DNA of 8,511 nt from a virus (lineage: Duplodnaviria; Heunggongvirae; Uroviricota; Caudoviricetes), in the IMG/VR virus record IMGVR_UViG_2681813271_000013, one strand, 5' to 3'. Numbering within the stretch: the stretch's first letter is position 1; every line of letters starts with the position of its first letter. This document shows positions 1 to 8,511 of this stretch, piece after piece. Under the pieces are notes generated by a model that was given only the letters and a program-made list of their open reading frames with translations, did not search any database and had not been told where the DNA came from. A program made the position numbers and the translations under genes.

Positions 1-2
1 AG

Positions 3-875
3 ATACAGAAGGTTCAGGTTGATACAAATAATAACCTGAACAGCATGTGGGCTGTGAAGCTGCAGCAGATGCAGGACGGACGCCTTTATATCGCGGGTAT
101 TGGTGCCGGTATTGAGAACACCCCTGACGGCATGCAGAGTCAGGTGCTGCTGGCGGCGGACAGGATTGCGATGGTTAATCCTGCGAATGGCAACACAAAA
201 CCGATGTTTGTTGGTCAGGGCGATCAGATATTCATGAACGACGTGTTCCTGAAACGCCTGACGGCCCCCACCATTACCAGCGGTGGAAATCCATCGGCAT
301 TTTCCCTGACTCCGGACGGAAAGCTGACCGCTAAAAATGCGGATATCAGTGGCAGTGTGAATGCGAACGCCGGGACGCTCAACAATGTCACGGTAAATGA
401 AAACTGTACGATTAAGGGCATGCTGGAGGCGACTCAGGTCAGAGGTGACTTCGTTAAAGCTGTATCCAAATCATTTCCGAAACAGGCTGGTACGTGGGGT
501 AACACGGAAACACCAAACGGGACGGTTACAGTCACCATAAGCGATGATCATAACTTTGACCGCCAGATTATTATTCCGCCCATTATTTTTAACGGTATAG
601 CGTATGACGATCCGGGGAGCGGAAATAACCCAGGAGGCACGCGATACACGGGTTATGGTTTTGAAGTTCGCAAAAACGGCGTATTAATCGCATCCAGAGA
701 AACTAAAGGTGCCATTCCCGGTAGTTACAGTGCAGTTATTGATATGCCTAGTGGTGGTGGTAGCGTCACTCTGGAGTTTAAGATTTTCCAGAAAGGCAAT
801 CAGGGGGCAGGCAATATCACCGACTGTACGGTGATTGTGACCAAAAAAGCGGCTTCCGGCATCAGTATTCGTTGA
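3..875 (+). CDS. J: Tail tip host-specificity protein J, C-terminal part (5' partial, continues upstream of window)
   Basis: Frame 3 is open from the first base of the window (IQKVQVDTNNNLNSMWAVKLQQMQDGRLYIAGIGAGIENTPDG...) to TGA at 873-875. The protein resembles the C-terminal region of lambda J as I remember it, and sits directly upstream of lom as in lambda. No search run. Confidence 0.75.
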   Translation: MQKVQVDTNNNLNSMWAVKLQQMQDGRLYIAGIGAGIENTPDGMQSQVLLAADRIAMVNPANGNTKPMFVGQGDQIFMNDVFLKRLTAPTITSGGNPSAFSLTPDGKLTAKNADISGSVNANAGTLNNVTVNENCTIKGMLEATQVRGDFVKAVSKSFPKQAGTWGNTETPNGTVTVTISDDHNFDRQIIIPPIIFNGIAYDDPGSGNNPGGTRYTGYGFEVRKNGVLIASRETKGAIPGSYSAVIDMPSGGGSVTLEFKIFQKGNQGAGNITDCTVIVTKKAASGISIR

Positions 876-897
876 AATATTTATAACCCCAATAAAT

Positions 898-922
898 GGC
901 GTCAGGAATGACGCCTTTTTTA
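898..922 (+). terminator. Rho-independent terminator after J
   Basis: Hairpin ggcgtca-ggaa-tgacgcc (898-915) followed by a T-run (916-922), 23 nt upstream of the lom ATG. GAGAGG at 935-940 is a plausible RBS for lom. Confidence 0.6.
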
Positions 923-945
923 TTGCAGAAAAGCGAGAGGTAATT

Positions 946-1686
946 ATGCGTAAAGTTTGTGCAGCCATTTTGTCCGCAGCCATTTGCCTGGCCGTATCCG
1001 GTGCGCCTGCATGGGCGTCTGAACATCAGTCCACGCTGAGCGCGGGGTATCTTCATGCCCGGACCAACGTTCCCGGCAGTGATGATCTGAACGGGATTAA
1101 CGTGAAATACCGTTATGAGTTTACGGACGCGCTGGGGCTGATTACGTCCTTCAGTTATGCCAATGCTGAGGATGAGCAAAAAACGCACTACAGCGATACC
1201 CGCTGGCATGAAGATTCCGTGCGTAACCGCTGGTTCAGCGTGATGGCGGGGCCGTCTGTACGCGTGAATGAATGGTTCAGCGCGTATGCGATGGTGGGTG
1301 TGGCTTACAGCCGTGTGTCGACTTTCTCCGGGGATTATCTCCGCGTAACTGACAACAAGGGGAAAACGCACGATGTGCTGACCGGAAGTGATGACGGTCG
1401 CCACAGCAACACGTCTCTGGCGCACTGACGGTTNNNNNNNNNNNNNNNNNNNNNNNNNNNNNNNNNNNNNNNNNNNNNNNNNNNNNNNNNNNNNNNNNNN
1501 NNNNNNNNNNNCGATGTGCTGACCGGAAGTGATGACGGTCGCCACAGCAACACGTCTCTGGCGTGGGGGGCTGGCGTGCAGTTTAACCCGACCGAATCCG
1601 TGACCATTGACCTTGCTTATGAAGGTTCCGGTAGTGGTGACTGGCGAACGGATGCATTTATTGTTGGTATCGGATACCGTATCTGA
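946..1686 (+). CDS. lom: Lom outer-membrane protein (Ail/Lom/OmpX family beta-barrel), interrupted by an N-gap
   Basis: ATG at 946 with upstream RBS. N-terminus MRKVCAAILSAAICLAVSGAPAWA is a typical signal peptide ending AWA. The frame is the same before and after the gap and ends ...DAFIVGIGYRI then TGA at 1684-1686. As assembled, the pre-gap flank carries an in-frame TGA at 1426-1428, so the track ORF stops at 1428. Without the duplicated flank the protein would be about 199 aa (lambda Lom is about 206 aa). Confidence 0.8.
1434..1511. other. Assembly gap (78 N) inside lom, flanked by a duplicated 52-bp sequence
   Basis: 1371-1422 and 1512-1563 are identical (cgatgtgctgaccggaagtgatgacggtcgccacagcaacacgtctctggcg). 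The bases after the left copy (cactgacggtt) match the second lom copy at 2886-2896, not the right flank. Confidence 0.9.
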
Positions 1687-1792
1687 CAACAGACGCCGAT
1701 TTATCTTCTGTAAATATTGTTATGATACGCAGGTTCATCCACCTTATGGGGTGAACTGCGTTTGAGGAAACGTAAAGTTACACTGTCCTGAA

Positions 1793-1823
1793 GCCCGTGG
1801 CGTCACTGCTGCGGGCTTTTTTT
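1793..1823 (+). terminator. Rho-independent terminator after lom
   Basis: GC-rich inverted repeat gcccg (1793-1797) ... cgggc (1812-1816) followed by a T-run at 1817-1823, immediately upstream of the ATG at 1838. Confidence 0.55.
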
Positions 1824-1837
1824 ATTGGTGGAAAAGT

Positions 1838-2445
1838 ATGACAGTAAAAATTTCTGGCGTGCTTAAAGATGGCACAGGAAAACCAGTACAGAACTGCACC
1901 ATTGTGCTGAAGGCCAGACGAACCAGCAGCACGATGGTGGTGAACACGGTGGCCTCTGAAAATCCGGATGAAGCCGGACGTTACAGCATGGATGTTGAGC
2001 ATGGTCAGTACAGCGTCACCCTGCTGGTTGAAGGTTTTCCGCCTTCACATGCCGGGACCATTACCGTCTATGAAGGTTCCAGACCAGGTACGCTGAATGA
2101 TTTTCTCGGTGCCATGACGGAGGATGATGTCCGACCGGAGGCACTGCGCCGCTTTGAGCAGATGGTGGAAGAGGTGTCACGTAACGCCTCCGCGGTTGCA
2201 CAGAATACGGCAGCCGCGAAAAAATCAGCCAGCGAGGCGGCAACTCATGCAACCGATGCTGCAGCCTCAGCACGTGCCGCCAGCACGTCAGCCGGACAGG
2301 CCGCGTCGTCGGCTCAGTCAGCGTCTTCCAGCGCAGGAACGGCATCGACAAAGGCCCGTGAAGCAGCAAAAAGTGCTGCTGCAGAGTCATCAAAAAGCGC
2401 GGCAGCTACCAGCGCCAGTGCCGCGAAAACGTCAGAAACGAATGC
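1838..2445 (+). CDS. stf: Side tail fibre protein, N-terminal fragment (allele 1); continues in frame into a lom-like sequence as one 353-aa ORF (1838-2899)
   Basis: [26 protein letters not shown]...[14 protein letters not shown]... is roughly 90% identical by eye to the start of the main stf at 2998 and resembles the lambda Stf N-terminus. A single N at 2446 marks the switch to lom-like sequence. Confidence 0.6.
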
Positions 2446-2446
2446 N

Positions 2447-2933
2447 GCAGCCATTTGCCTGGCCGTATCCGGTGCGCCTGCATGGGCGTCTGAACATCAG
2501 TCCACGCTGAGCGCGGGGTATCTTCATGCCCGGACCAACGTTCCCGGCAGTGATGATCTGAACGGGATTAACGTGAAATACCGTTATGAGTTTACGGATA
2601 CGCTGGGGCTGGTGACGTCATTCAGCTATGCAGGAGACAAGAATCGCCAGCTGACCCGTTACAGCGATACCCGCTGGCATGAAGATTCCGTGCGTAACCG
2701 CTGGTTCAGCGTGATGGCGGGGCCGTCTGTGCGCGTGAATGAATGGTTCAGCGCGTATGCGATGGCGGGTGTGGCTTACAGCCGTGTGTCGACTTTTTCC
2801 GGGGATTATATCCGCGTAACTGACAATAAGGGGAAAACGCACGATGTGCTGACCGGAAGTGATGACGGTCGCCACAGCAACACGTCTCTGGCGCACTGAC
2901 GGTTTCATCGTGGGTGTCGGTTATAAATTCTGA
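2447..2933 (+). pseudogene. lom: Second, divergent lom copy lacking its signal peptide and carrying a 3' deletion/frameshift
   Basis: 2447-2896 aligns with lom 976-1425 with scattered substitutions and one replaced patch. After ...SNTSLA the sequence reads cac tga, an in-frame stop at 2897-2899. The following bases encode a Lom C-terminus-like peptide (DGFIVGVGYKF then stop at 2931-2933) in another frame, consistent with an 83-nt deletion between two ctggcg direct repeats relative to copy 1. Confidence 0.65.
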
Positions 2934-2960
2934 TTAGCCAGGTAACACAGTGTTATGACA

Positions 2961-2986
2961 GCCCGCCGGTTCAGGCGGGCTTTTTT
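2961..2986 (+). terminator. Rho-independent terminator upstream of stf
   Basis: gcccgcc (2961-2967), loop ggttca, ggcgggc (2974-2980), then tttttt (2981-2986). Confidence 0.6.
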
Positions 2987-2997
2987 GTGGGGTGAAT

Positions 2998-5900
2998 ATG
3001 GCAGTAAAGATTTCAGGTGTACTGAAAGACGGCACAGGAAAACCGGTACAGAACTGCACAATCCAGCTGAAAGCAAAACGTAACAGCACCACGGTGGTGG
3101 TGAACACGCTGGCCTCAGAAAATCCGGATGAAGCCGGGCGTTACAGCATGGACGTTGAGTACGGTCAGTACAGCGTTATTCTGTTGGTGGAAGGATTCCC
3201 GCCGTCACATGCCGGGACCATCACCGTGTATGAAGATTCCCGACCCGGTACGCTGAATGATTTTCTCGGTGCCATGACGGAGGATGATGCCCGTCCGGAG
3301 GCACTGCGCCGTTTTGAGCTGATGGTGGAAGAGGTGGCGCGTAACGCGTCCGCGGTGGCACAGAACACGGCAGCCGCGAAGAAATCAGCCAGCGATGCCA
3401 GCACATCAGCCCGTGAGGCGGCAACCCATGCGACTGATGCTGCAGATTCAGCACGTGCAGCCAGCACGTCAGCCGGACAGGCCGCTTCGTCGGCTCAGTC
3501 AGCGTCTTCCAGCGCAGGAACGGCATCAACAAAGGCCACTGAAGCCTCAAAAAGTGCTGCCGCTGCAGAGTCCTCAAAAAGCGCGGCGGCTACCAGTGCC
3601 GGTGCGGCGAAAACGTTAGAAACGAATGCGGCAGCGTCACAACAATCAGCAGCCACTTCTGCATCCACCGCGACCACGAAAGCGTCAGAAGCTGCCACCT
3701 CAGCCCGGGATGCGTCGGCTTCAAAAGAGGCGGCAAAATCATCAGAAACGAACGCATCATCAAGCGCCAGTAGCGCAGCTTCCTCGGCGACGGCGGCTGC
3801 AAATTCTGCGAAGGCGGCCAAAACGTCCGAGACGAACGCCAGGTCTTCTGAAACGGCAGCGGGACAGAGTGCCTCAGCTGCGGCAGGCTNNNNNNNNNNN
3901 NNNNNNNNNNNNNNNNNNNNNNNNNNNNNNNNNNNNNNNNNNNNNNNNNNNNNNNNNNNNNNNNNNNNNNNNNNNNNNNNNNNNNNNNNNNNNNNNNNNN
4001 NNNNNNNNNNNNNNNNNNNNNNNNNNNNNNNNNNNNNNNNNNNNNNNNNNNNNNNNNNNNNNNNNNNNNNNNNNNNNNNNNNCAACCGATGCTGCAGCCT
4101 CAGCACGTGCCGCCAGCACGTCAGCCGGACAGGCCGCGTCGTCGGCTCAGTCAGCGTCTTCCAGCGCAGGAACGGCATCGACAAAGGCCCGTGAAGCAGC
4201 AAAAAGTGCTGCNNNNNNNNNNNNNNNNNNNNNNNNNNNNNNNNNNNNNNNNNNNNNNNNNNNNNNNNNNNNNNNNNNNNNNNNNNNNNNNNNNNNNNNN
4301 NNNNNNNNNNNNNNNNNNNNNNNNNNNNNNNNNNNNNNNNNNNNNNNNNNNNNNNNNNNNNNNNNNNNNNNNNNNNNNNNNNNNNNNNNNNNNNNNNNNN
4401 NNNNNNNNNNNNNNNNNNNNNNNNNNNNNNNNNNNNNNNNNNNNNNNNNNNNNNNNNNNNNNNNNNNNNNNNNNNNNNNNNNNNNNNNNNNNNNNNNNNN
4501 NNNNNNNNNNNNNNNNNNNNNNNNNNNNNNNNNNNNNNNNNNNNNNNNNNNNNNNNNNNNNNNNNNNNNNNNNNNNNNNNNNNNNNNNNNNNNNNNNNNN
4601 NNNNNNNNNNNNNNNNNNNNNNNNNNNNNNNNNNNNNNATGCCGCAGCATCACAAAAATCGGCAGAAAGCGCCGCATCATCCGCTTCAACAGCCACAACG
4701 AAGGCTGGCGAAGCCACTGAGCAGGCCACGGCAGCAGCGAGGTCTGCTTCTGCAGCAACGCGCGCTGAGACAGCGNTCAAAAACAGCGGCTGCATTATCT
4801 GCCAGTGCCGCGTCAACAAGTGCCGGGCAGGCCTCAGCCAGTGCCACCGCCGCCGGAAAATCGGCAGAAAGCGCCGCATCATCCGCTTCAACAGCCACAA
4901 CGAAGGCTGGCAAAGCCACTGAGCAAGCCACTGCAGCAGCGAGGTCTGCTTCTGCAGCAAAAACCTCTGAAACAAATGCAAAGACTTCAGCAGACAATGC
5001 TGCTTCCTCTAAGGCAGCAGCCGCATCGTCAGCCAGTTCAGCGGCGTCATCGGCATCATCTGCGTCTGCTTCAAAAGATGAGGCGACCAGACAAGCGTCA
5101 GCAGCGAAAGGTAGTGCCACGACAGCAACAACGAAAGCATCAGAGGCGGCAGGCAGTGCGACGGCTGCATCTCAGAGCAAAGTTGCTGCTGAATCCGCGG
5201 CAACGCGCGCCGAGACAGCAGCAAAACGGGCAGAGGATATTGCATCCGCCGTGGCGCTTGAGGATGCGAGCACGACGAAAAAGGGGATAGTACAGCTCAG
5301 CAGTGCGACCAACAGCACTTCCGAGTCACTGGCGGCAACGCCAAAAGCGGTTAAGGCGGTAATGGGTGAAACGAACAAGAAAGCGCCCTTAAATAGTCCT
5401 GCACTGACCGGAACGCCAACAACACCAACTGCGCGACAGGGAACGAATAATACCCAAATCGCAAGCACGGCTTTCGTTATGGCTGCGATTGCCGCCCTTG
5501 TAGATTCGTCACCTGATGCACTGAACACGCTGAACGAGCTGGCTGCGGCGCTGGGCAACGACCCGAATTTTGCGACCACCATGACTAACGCGCTTGCGGG
5601 TAAGCAACCGAAAGATGCCACTCTGACGGCGCTGGCGGGGCTTGCTACTGCGGCAGACAGGTTTCCGTATTTTACGGGGAATGATGTCGCCAGCNCGGAA
5701 AATCGGCAGAAAGCGCCGCATCATCCGCTTCAACAGCCACAACGAAGGCTGGCGAAGCCACTGAGCAGGCCACGGCAGCAGCGAGGTCAGCTTCCGCAGC
5801 GAAGACATCCGAAACGAACGCGAAAGCGTCGGAAACCCGTGCAGAATCCTCAAAAACGGCTGCCGCATCGTCCGCCAGTTCGGCGGCGTCATCGGCATCA

Positions 5901-7811
5901 TCGGCGTCTGCTTCAAAAGATGAGGCGACCAGACAGGCGTCAGCAGCGAAGGGCAGCGCCACGACGGCATCCACGAAGGCGACAGAGGCTGCTGGTAGTG
6001 CGACGGCAGCAGCTCAGAGCAAAAGTACGGCGGAATCTGCAGCAACGCGCGCTGAGACAGCGGCAAAACGGGCAGAGGATATTGCATCCGCCGTGGCGCT
6101 TGAGGATGCGAGCACGACGAAAAAGGGGATAGTACAGCTCAGTAGTGCGACTAACAGCACTTCCGAGTCACTGGCGGCAACACCAAAAGCCGTTAAGGCC
6201 GCGTATGACCTGGCTAACGGGAAATACACCGCACAGGATGCAACGACAGCACAGAAAGGGATAATCCAGCTAAGCAGCGCGACCAACAGCACGTCTGAAA
6301 CGCTGGCGGCAACGCCAAAGGCAGTAAAAGCAGCCAATGACAATGCTGAGAAACGTCTGCAGAAAGATCAGAACGGTGCGGATATCCCTGGCAAAGACAC
6401 CTTTACGAAAAATATTGGTGCCTGCCGTGCCTTCGGTGGGTCAGTAAGCACAACAACAGGAAACTGGACGACTGCACAGTTTATCGAGTGGCTGGATTCT
6501 CAGGGAGCATTTAACCATCCATACTGGATGTGCAAGGGTTCCTGGTCTTATGGCAATAATAAAATCATTACTGATACTGGCTGCGGTAATATTCATCTCG
6601 CCGGAGCTGTCATTGAAGTAATGGGGATAAAGTCAGCGATGACGATCCGCATTACCACTCCGACCACATCCAGCGGTGGCGGAACAACCAACGCCCAGTT
6701 TACCTATATTAATCACGGAACAGATTATTCACCTGGCTGGCGAAGGGACTATAACTCCAGAAATAAGCCAACGGCATCAGAGATCGGGGCGCTACCGTCA
6801 GGTGGAACAGCAGTATCATCAGTTAATCTGGCTTCAAAAGGTCGGGTAGCCGCGCTGACAGACAATACGCAGGGGGCAGCAGGTCTTGAGTTATACGAGG
6901 TGTATAACAACGGATATCCAACAGCGTATGGAAATATCATTCACCTGAAAGGGATGACAGCCGTTGGCGAAGGTGAGTTACTCATCGGCTGGAGTGGTAC
7001 AAGCGGTGCTCATGCTCCGGCATTTATTCGTTCACGACGGGATACGACCGACGCAAACTGGTCGCCGTGGGCGCAGCTTTACACCTCGGCTCATCCTCCT
7101 GCAGAGTTTTATCCAGTCGGTGCACCAATCCCGTGGCCATCAGATACCGTTCCGTCTGGTTATGCCCTGATGCAGGGGCAGACTTTTGACAAATCTGCTT
7201 ACCCGAAACTTGCAGCCGCTTATCCGTCAGGCGTGATCCCTGATATGCGTGGCTGGACGATTAAGGGCAAGCCCGCCAGTGGTCGTGCCGTATTGTCTCA
7301 GGAACAGGATGGCATTAAATCGCACACCCACAGCGCCAGCGCATCCAGTACGGATTTGGGGACGAAAACCACATCGTCGTTTGATTACGGCACTAAATCC
7401 ACGAATAACACCGGGGCGCATACGCACAGTCTGAGCGGCTCTACAAGTTCAGCTGGGGCCCACCAACATAGTCAGACTGGGCCCAGAACGAATAGCGGGA
7501 GTCAACCTACTGGAATGTTTCCGGCAGGGAGTACTCAAGTTAGCGGGACTAATCAGGTTGGTATCAGTGGCTCATTAACCAGTGGCACCTCCCAATGGGT
7601 AGGTAAATCATCTTCAGAAGGAAACCATACACACTCACTGTCCGGCACAGCAGCATCTGCGGGTGCACACGCGCATACTGTCGGTATTGGTGCTCATACG
7701 CACTCTGTTGCGATTGGTTCACATGGACACACCATCACCGTTAACGCTGCTGGTAACGCGGAAAACACCGTCAAAAACATCGCATTTAACTATATTGTGA
7801 GGCTCGCATAA
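2998..7811 (+). CDS. stf: Side tail fibre protein Stf (lambda Stf / StfR-like; T4 gp37-related tip), gapped and with frame discontinuities
   Basis: ATG at 2998 gives [26 protein letters not shown]... (the track starts at GTG 2992). A long Ala/Ser/Thr-rich repetitive shaft follows. The C-terminal part (frame 3, about 5697-7808) contains [24 protein letters not shown] fibre repeats, the [16 protein letters not shown]...[30 protein letters not shown] tip, and ends ...[18 protein letters not shown] with TAA at 7809-7811. The reading frame changes at N-run 3890-4082, N-run 4213-4638, and single N's at 4776 and 5695, so true length and repeat number are unknown. Confidence 0.75.
3890..4082. other. 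Assembly gap (193 N) in the stf repeat region
   Basis: Run of N; the sequence after it (4083-4212) matches allele 1 rather than the preceding allele 2. Confidence 0.9.
4083..4212 (+). repeat. 130-bp island identical to stf allele 1 (2250-2379), isolated between two gaps
   Basis: Exact match by eye to 2250-2379 (caaccgatgctgcagcctcagcacgtgccgcc...aaaaagtgctgc). It differs from the corresponding allele-2 stretch at about 3422-3550. Confidence 0.85.
4213..4638. other. Assembly gap (426 N) in the stf repeat region
   Basis: Run of N. Confidence 0.9.
4854..6132 (+). repeat. Two copies of a ~435-bp stf shaft repeat unit (4854-5290 and 5696-6132), roughly 90% identical
   Basis: Both begin ccggaaaatcggcagaaagcgccgcatcatccgcttcaacagcc and end ...gaggatgcgagcacgacgaaaaaggggatagtacagctc. 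They encode (A)[19 protein letters not shown]...[33 protein letters not shown] partial, collapsed version is at 4648-4775. Confidence 0.8.
5275..6334 (+). repeat. Three phage tail-fibre repeat motifs GI(V/I)[11 protein letters not shown](S/T)[10 protein letters not shown] (about 5275-5362, 6119-6202, 6251-6334)
   Basis: Direct reading of the translated stf frames. The motif looks like the short fibre repeat found in lambda Stf and T4 gp37-type fibres; I recall it as Pfam Phage_fiber_2, unverified. Confidence 0.7.
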
Positions 7812-8327
7812 TGGCATTCAGAATGAGTGAACAAGCACGGACCATAAAAATTTATAACCTGCTGGCCGGAACTAATGAATTTATTGGTGAAGGTGACGCA
7901 TATATTCCGCCTCATACAGGTCTGCCTGCAAACATCGTGGCATCTCGTTGAAGATCATCGGGGTAAAACGGTTTATGACGTGGCTTCCGGCGACGCGTTA
8001 TTTATTTCTGAACTCGGCTCATTACCGGAAAATGTCACCTGGTTATCCCCGGAAGGGGAGTTTCAGAAGTGGAACGGCACAGCCTGGGTGAAGGATACGG
8101 AAGCAGAAAAACTGTTCCGGATCCGGGAGGCGGAAGAAACAAAAAACAGCCTGATGCAGGTAGCCAGTGAGCATATAGCGCCGCTTCAGGATGCTGTGGA
8201 TCTGGAGATCGCAACGGAGAAAGAAACCTTGTTGCTGGAAGCCTGGAAAAAGTATCGGGTGTTGCTGAACCGTGTTGATACATCAACTGCACCGGATATT
8301 GAATGGCCAGTAGCACCTATAGGGTAA
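7811..8327 (+). pseudogene. tfa: Tail fibre assembly protein Tfa, disrupted by an internal deletion/frameshift
   Basis: ATG at 7811 overlaps the stf stop (TAATG). Frame 2 gives [41 protein letters not shown] then IVASR and stop at 7949-7951. The conserved continuation [28 protein letters not shown]...[16 protein letters not shown] runs in frame 3 from about 7935 to TAA at 8325-8327. The track ORF 7875-8327 is this C-terminal part with a spurious start. Confidence 0.75.
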
Positions 8328-8410
8328 ATTCGTAATGATTACCTAAATACGTTATTCTTTTGTTAAAAAAGTGATTTTGCTATAGGTAGGGAGTATGTTC
8401 TTGGATTAAG

Positions 8411-8443
8411 AATAAAAAATCGCCATGAAAGAGCTTCATGGCG
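8411..8443 (-). terminator. Intrinsic terminator oriented for minus-strand transcription
   Basis: Perfect 9-bp inverted repeat cgccatgaa (8421-8429) / ttcatggcg (8435-8443) with loop agagc. On the minus strand the stem is followed by ATTTTTTATT (complement of 8411-8420). On the + strand the downstream sequence is not T-rich. Confidence 0.5.
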
Positions 8444-8511
8444 AGTACATAAACGTACAAAATGTGATGAAAGTAGAGTGGCGTAAGCCACTATATTAAG
8501 ATATGACAATA

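Follow-up and report, generated by a model that had tools for sequence, protein, structure and literature searches.

The closest described systems to the locus analysed here are the Stf tail fibres of lambda and Ur-lambda and StfR of Escherichia coli K-12, all found in the gene order J-lom-stf-tfa. In Ur-lambda, gpStf is trimeric and comprises a collar domain (residues 1-91), a linker, and a proximal coiled coil (residues 102-393) (PMC12617516). The window studied in this work, a stretch of 8511 nt that an exact-protein look-up identified as the whole draft contig CXCM01000192.1 (GCA_001256555.1), carries the tail end of a lambdoid prophage, in which the C-terminus of J, lom, stf, and tfa are recognized by Pfam. 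It shares the gene order with the systems named above and differs from them in holding only fragments of two stf genes, arranged in scrambled order. Both lom (946-1433/1512-1686 and 2447-2932) and the N-terminal part of stf (1838-2445 and 2998-3889, 85% identical to each other) are present twice. The window is interrupted by six N features: runs at 1434-1511 (78 nt), 3890-4082 (193 nt), and 4213-4638 (426 nt), and single Ns at 2446, 4776, and 5695.

The giant broken stf suggested by this layout is very probably (roughly 93% by our estimate) an assembly artefact, namely a short-read scaffold interleaving the contigs of two paralogous lambdoid J-lom-stf loci, hereafter A and B. Judged by comparison with N-free references, the feature is an artefact in a well-known gene family, and each of the genes involved is a normal continuous open reading frame (ORF) elsewhere. 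The proposed order would start with locus B (1 to ~1100), followed by locus A (~1100 to 1422), 11 nt of B, an N-run, A at 1512-2445, a single N, and B at 2447-3889. The 3' half would continue with an N-run, a duplicated island of A, another N-run, a 137-nt A/B chimera, a single N, A at 4777-5694, a further single N, and B at 5696-8511. Both loci probably belong to the same genome.

Assignment of the segments to two loci

Each segment between the Ns contains one stop-free frame rich in Ala, Ser, and Thr, and the phase shifts at each break. The region 2998-7811 contains four N breaks and five frame phases, and Stf is not encoded there by a single ORF; the codon starts modulo 3 are 1 for 2998-3889, 2 for 4083-4212, 0 for 4639-4775, 1 for 4777-5694, and 0 for 5696-7811. 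In the N-free references, a single ORF is found, of 1027 aa in the finished genome used for locus B and as an open frame in the contig used for locus A. All six N features coincide with breaks of colinearity, the pattern of mis-scaffolding. A reading of the letters alone (the original prediction) had listed the N-runs at 3890-4082 and 4213-4638 and the single Ns at 4776 and 5695, and they are located exactly there. Its observation of a frame change or allele switch at every break is borne out by the codon phases, which run 1, 2, 0, 1, 0. The same reading had described an island of the first allele at 4083-4212, an abrupt end of a lambda-Stf-like segment at 5695 with a jump into shaft sequence, and the merging of more than one tail-fibre gene. 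The 130 nt of the island are 100% identical to 2250-2379 and 92% identical to the second stf N-terminus, the abrupt end was seen again in alignments with complete genes, and the segments of the window sort onto two loci, each ~100% identical to N-free sequence. All genes and gene fragments of the window, including the island and the chimeric filler, lie on the plus strand.

As a reference for locus B we used a region (L009) of the finished chromosome HE616528.1, which belongs to Shigella sonnei 53G (PMC5447701). This chromosome was found by an exact-protein look-up through the truncated Tfa ORF, which is called there too. Positions 1-1127 of the window are 100% identical to this locus, and so are, without gaps, 2447-3889 (L009 6303-7745) and 5696-8511 (L009 7822-10637). 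The latter two pieces are separated by only 76 nt in 53G and by 1806 nt in the window, where the space is taken by Ns, the island, the filler fragment, and the A segment. The stf gene of 53G is one ORF of 3084 nt encoding 1027 aa, and the finished chromosome contains a single J-lom-stf-tfa locus that is identical to the B pieces. By this comparison, stfB is 2998-3889 (nt 1-892, aa 1-297; L009 6854-7745, 100%) plus 76 missing nt plus 5696-7811 (nt 969-3084, aa 324-1027; L009 7822-9937, 100%), joined in frame to give 3084 nt and 1027 aa. The first part encodes the collar domain (phage_tail_N, E 1.5e-72) and the predicted heptad coiled-coil shaft. The second, as assigned from Pfam and Protein Data Bank (PDB) matches, comprises the distal shaft, two Phage_fiber_2 motifs, a Mu-S-like middle region (8JU3, E 2.2e-86), a collar domain, and a tip similar to T4 gp37 (2XGF, E 3.4e-82). 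The N-run 3890-4082 falls between these parts and appears to be a scaffold gap without a real counterpart, the spacing in 53G being only 76 nt; the run 4213-4638 is assigned to the same category.

The reference for locus A is the N-free IMG/VR contig IMGVR_UViG_2695420708_000011, two parts of which are designated L014 and L143. The 934-nt block 1512-2445 is 100% identical to L014 380-1313; positions 4777-5495 show one mismatch in 719 nt with L014 1573-2291, and 5545-5694 are 100% identical to L143 1-150. The entire segment 4777-5694 is also 98.9% identical to E. coli NCTC86. In the reference, the two A blocks are 259 nt apart and form a single open frame of at least 528 aa that runs to its own stop. 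On this basis, stfA is 1838-2445 (nt 1-608, aa 1-202) plus 259 missing nt plus 4777-5694 (nt 868-1785, aa 290-595) plus a C-terminal part of ~1 kb outside the window, all in frame. Its first part encodes the collar domain (phage_tail_N, E 1.7e-70) and the start of the heptad shaft, and the second encodes the distal shaft, a Phage_fiber_2 motif, and the lambda-like middle region. This second part tracks complete lambda-like Stf genes until ...GATGTCGCCAGC, whereupon the window jumps into shaft sequence, whereas the complete genes go on as CTGGCAACCCTGACAAAAGT... or CTGGCAACCCTGAC...; past window position 5694, the frame of locus A reads LATLTKVGRDILAK... in the N-free contig. The original prediction held the true structure of stf and its repeat number to be unknown; this no longer applies, as stfB can be read as a 3084-nt ORF in 53G and stfA as an open frame in the IMG/VR contig.

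The first lom copy (946-1433) is a chimera that its sequence does not announce: it is B-type to ~1084 and A-type at 1128-1356, and 1357-1422 are identical in both loci. Among the 35 sites in 992-1422 that distinguish A from B, 6 (at 1035-1084) carry the B variant, 29 (at 1128-1356) carry the A variant, and none matches neither. The switch lies within 1085-1127, 43 nt that are identical in both loci, and is not marked by any N. The resulting 160-aa chimeric 'Lom' (946-1428) is known from this contig alone. The last 11 nt of this copy (1423-1433) are the junction of an 83-nt deletion found in locus B, and the A-type 3' end of lom (1512-1686), which lies inside the block matching L014, is without this deletion, as is also seen in the lom alignment. 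The first 52 nt after the N-run (1512-1563) exactly repeat 1371-1422. Since the flanking pieces overlap, the 78-nt gap is spurious. At the single N at 2446, stfA is broken off after nt 608 and joined to codon 11 of the lom of locus B (2447-2932), which is 100% identical to 53G and carries the 83-nt deletion. A similar A-to-B join is formed by the single N at 5695. No protein identical to the reconstructed Lom of locus A was found in the protein collection, which is accounted for by the silent B-to-A switch within the first segment of the window (1-1433).

Two small pieces lie between the two parts of stfB. The island 4083-4212 duplicates stfA 2250-2379 (also L014 1118-1247) and appears to be misplaced. 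The 137-nt piece 4639-4775, which is followed by the single-N join at 4776, was resolved by exact-match mapping and alignment. Its first 27 nt are the true continuation of stfA after 2445, exactly matching L014 1310-1336; it then jumps at the 11-mer AAAATCGGCAG and goes on with B-type followed by A-type variants, and it jumps again at TCTGCAGCAA into B-type sequence identical to 6036-6062. The joints are words of 10-11 nt that recur between heptads; the repetitive shaft does contribute locally to the misassembly. In complete E. coli genomes, no match to this piece extends beyond its nt 17-120. Its 3' junction (4756/4757) was absent from genome and metagenome contigs in exact-pattern scans, and the junction at 5695, including the N, was absent from genome contigs; the genome-contig scans covered species representatives, and the source genome is evidently outside them. 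A third stf copy had been considered as the source of the piece and was rejected as not required, every variant site of the fragment being either A or B. It is very doubtful that the piece samples a true stf variant present as a minority in the culture. In such a variant, recombination at AAAATCGGCAG and TCTGCAGCAA would have deleted 109 and 81 shaft codons; if true, this would mean fibre-length variation arising within a strain. The exact word that bears on the choice between a gap-filler chimera and such a short-shaft variant is the 39-mer GCGAGGTCTGCTTCTGCAGCAACGCGCGCTGAGACAGCG.

Origin of the layout

The loci A and B share exact runs of 1127, 71, 66, 105, and 80 nt, which lie at or beside contig ends. 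The run of 66 nt stops at 1422, where the deleted and the undeleted lom diverge, and the 105-nt run (4807-4911) covers the end of the gap in B. This location of the shared runs points to repeats between paralogues, exceeding the read or k-mer length, as the cause of the breaks, rather than to a tandem array within one gene. Three steps could have produced the observed layout: (i) the assembler would have broken or collapsed contigs at the exact A/B shared stretches of 66-1127 nt, (ii) read-pair scaffolding over these stretches would have alternated pieces of both loci, and (iii) gap filling would have inserted misplaced or chimeric bits. Joins by a single N where two pieces share a very short word, and islands lying within N-runs, are known products of scaffolders and gap-fillers.

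The core idea of the original prediction was a single stf with an unresolved tandem shaft of ~435-bp units, the copies of which the assembler had left uncounted. It rests on two homologous stretches, 4854-5357 and 5696-6199, that do exist: they span 504 nt, are 88.1% identical without gaps, and have the same orientation at an offset of 842; moreover, the shaft protein is truly repetitive. However, they are not arranged head to tail, as their starts are 842 nt apart and the non-repeat lambda-like region lies between them. Both fall on nt 969-1472 of one and the same stf gene in complete E. coli genomes, and locus B is matched at 100% by one of them and locus A at ~100% by the other; the units proposed as parts of an array are thus the same region of two paralogous genes. 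The 3084-nt stf of 53G, continuous and identical to the flanking segments, refutes the array and holds one counterpart of the unit (L009 7822-8325). Tandem Repeats Finder (TRF) detected no long-period tandem array in the window, and self-BLAST of four intact stf genes (E. coli L001, L002, and L003 and K-12 stfR) gave no internal DNA repeat above 87 nt, the 87-nt repeat being a pair of Phage_fiber_2 motifs 132 nt apart. The claim of degenerate shaft repeats holds in so far as the shaft is periodic, with a period of 7 aa (21 nt), but the autocorrelation at a lag of 145 aa (435 bp) is z = -1.4. Across 5,426 complete E. coli genomes, 84% of the 8511-nt window is accommodated by the best single place in a span of just 5446 bp, which implies that the window stacks paralogous material; the number of such places per genome has a median of 3 and a maximum of 15. 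A tandem array is therefore almost certainly not the explanation.

Two other scenarios would accept more of the layout as real. The window could be the decayed end of a mosaic prophage with a true tandem duplication and rearrangement, J-lom-stf'-lom-stf-tfa, in which the Ns are small sequencing gaps. Shigella prophages are heavily decayed, and two frameshifting deletions of the window, in lom and tfa, are genuine. Yet outside 1-1433 the allele switches all fall exactly on an N, the repetition of 1371-1422 by 1512-1563 across an N-run indicates overlapping contig ends, and neither the frame nor the order of the island and the 137-nt filler is biologically meaningful. With a single J-lom-stf-tfa locus that is identical to the B pieces in finished 53G, and such a layout in none of the 5,426 complete E. 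coli genomes, a real duplication is highly improbable. A somewhat better, still small, chance may be given to alleles contributed by two different strains, the culture or read set being mixed or contaminated, instead of by two prophages of one chromosome. It would agree with locus A not being located in a finished S. sonnei genome and with the absence of the reconstructed hybrid Lom from the protein collection, although the latter is accounted for by the silent B-to-A switch. Against it, complete E. coli genomes usually hold several such loci (median 3 places), A-like and B-like loci occur together in the single complete genomes of WS3294A (H5, H38) and S8 (H24, H83), and the source is an isolate assembly.

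Several points weigh against the interleaving of two paralogous loci as set out above. The artefact is demonstrated by comparison and not by read coverage, and the sequence that confirms locus A is an IMG/VR contig, not a finished S. sonnei chromosome. That A and B occur in the same cell is deduced from the contig being part of an isolate assembly. The species assigned to GCA_001256555.1 is likewise deduced, from the 100% identity to 53G together with neighbouring CXB* accessions, which are drafts of S. sonnei from Holt et al. 2012; this suggests that CXCM01000192.1 comes from the same project. Finally, the oddities of the window that contain no N, the deletions in lom and tfa, proved to be real, which shows that irregularities lacking an N need not stem from faulty assembly.

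Shaft periodicity and Stf family membership

The periodicity of the shaft was analysed by autocorrelation over aa 110-480 of three intact proteins. The top 25 lags are all multiples of 7 (z of ~4-9), and the other lags average about -0.5. The heptad consensus is A-[TS]-x-A-x-[TS]-S, with Ala at position 1 in 36 and at position 4 in 47 of the 53 rows, and Ser at position 7 in 38 of them. About 49 of the 53 rows are in one unbroken register, and the run extends from ~aa 110 to 455 (~345 aa). A long alpha-helical coiled-coil shaft following the collar domain is accordingly predicted from the sequence. The shaft heptads of the A and B proteins correspond, as far as the residue pattern tells, to the proximal coiled coil of the trimeric Ur-lambda gpStf; the regular-heptad shaft fits the published model of the Ur-lambda fibre and is nothing new in kind.

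The notion that shaft repeat number varies, which was part of the original prediction, stands for natural length, although the unit of variation is 21 nt, in whole heptads, and not 435 bp. Relative to the E. coli homologues of the 465-aa class, with which stfB agrees, the CUVET20-416 gene is shorter by 7 aa (one heptad), and the lambda shaft differs by 105 aa (15 heptads), lambda being the shorter one. The stfA product is 8 aa shorter than that of stfB, that is, by one heptad and one Ala, and the N-free contig agrees.

Homology to the N-terminal domain of lambda gpStf (PF08400) was found for both N-termini (E 1.5e-72 and 1.7e-70), and aa 1-94 of the stfB product match the lambda Stf collar structures PDB 9E7M/9MGH (E 9.5e-53). 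The gene order is supported by Pfam matches to J, Ail_Lom, and Caudo_TAP, and annotations of complete genomes and of 53G show the same order. The shaft aligns with K-12 StfR over aa 1-477 without gaps, and the middle region of stfA aligns with lambda orf-401 and orf-314. On sequence grounds, both genes are ordinary members of the lambda Stf/E. coli StfR family. Each Stf would be built from an N-terminal collar, a heptad shaft of ~345 aa, Phage_fiber_2 motifs, and a C-terminus for receptor binding, with Tfa aiding its assembly. Within 5696-7811, alignment to the nearest E. coli genes (L001, L002) fails solely at 7439-7629 in the tip of stfB, a stretch with the look of the usual mosaicism of receptor-binding loops.

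Deletions, gene calls, and surroundings of the two loci

The tail-tip (host-specificity) protein J is represented by its C-terminal end at 1-875, with Pfam matches to Phage_Tail_Tip and Ig_GpJ_C. Downstream of it, two genes of locus B carry frameshifting deletions. In lom, 83 nt are deleted at 2893/2894, between two CTGGCG hexamers, which leaves a truncated Lom of 160 aa; this protein is named from S. sonnei Ss046 (Q3YZL0_SHISS), is seen on 861 contigs, and is identical in 53G. In the tail-fibre assembly gene tfa (7811-8327; Caudo_TAP), 65 nt are deleted at ~7934, and an ORF of 150 aa (7875-8327) is left, which is identical in 53G and has entries in 104 blocks of the contig collection. At the lom site, complete E. 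coli genomes possess 83 additional nt, and they match tfa in two pieces with 65 extra nt. Both deletions had been suspected to be assembly artefacts from such two-piece matches, and this was rejected, both being present in finished 53G. In this lineage, the chaperone gene tfa would seem to be a true pseudogene. None of the complete E. coli genomes is 100% identical to the window, the best identities per segment being 96-99%, because the source is Shigella-like.

The contig is unsuited to counting repeats, to typing tail fibres, or to inferring host range. Among the public gene calls on it, ORF 1838-2899 (353 aa) fuses the Stf N-terminal domain (PF08400) to Lom (PF06316), and the public ORFs 4639-6132 and 6093-7811 are artificial splits; such chimeric gene calls can seed false domain architectures and contaminate protein databases. 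The Ns alone neither reveal all chimeric joins nor flag all pseudogenes, because the switch at 1085-1127 has no N, yet two frameshifting deletions without Ns are real. The window resembles other mis-scaffolded multi-copy prophage regions in short-read enterobacterial drafts in several respects: (i) the breaks lie at exact repeats common to both loci, (ii) the N-runs differ from the true distances, contig ends are duplicated, and single-N joins occur at words of a few bases, and (iii) homologues in the protein database are mostly 'partial' and come from sub-kilobase contigs. In all this there is nothing unusual; one chimeric join, at 1085-1127, is silent and has no N.

A protein search against a collection of 5.8 billion proteins returned close homologues of the stfA middle region that are overwhelmingly 'partial' products of contigs shorter than 1 kb, for example, a cluster of 256 members represented by a protein from an 889-nt contig. 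Fragmentation of stf genes is thus routine in short-read assemblies.

Tail-fibre segments inverted by recombinases of the Gin/Cin/Pin type are known as the G segment of Mu, the C segment of P1, and the P segment of e14. A similar layout is seen in the actual locus A and in the complete genomes most closely related to it, which contain tfa, an inverted tfa', and an inverted alternative fibre C-terminus; in L143, this series lies 3' of stfA. Inverted repeats with a ...ACCTCGGTTTAC... core are found at the junction of the constant and variable parts of the fibre and flank the inverted segments (L003 7553-7584/10640-10671; L004 5973-6753/8190-8970; L143 1182-3259). A recombinase gene is annotated nearby in the relatives MLI121 and NCTC86. 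By its sequence layout, locus A thus resembles fibres with Gin/Pin-type invertible C-termini. In contrast, none of these elements is inside the window, where the A path ends 55 nt upstream of the crossover-like repeat. In 53G, the prophage end of locus B is followed by copies of IS1 (L009 11258-11955 and 18237-18934), other transposase fragments, and an integrase gene, surroundings typical of decayed Shigella prophage remnants.

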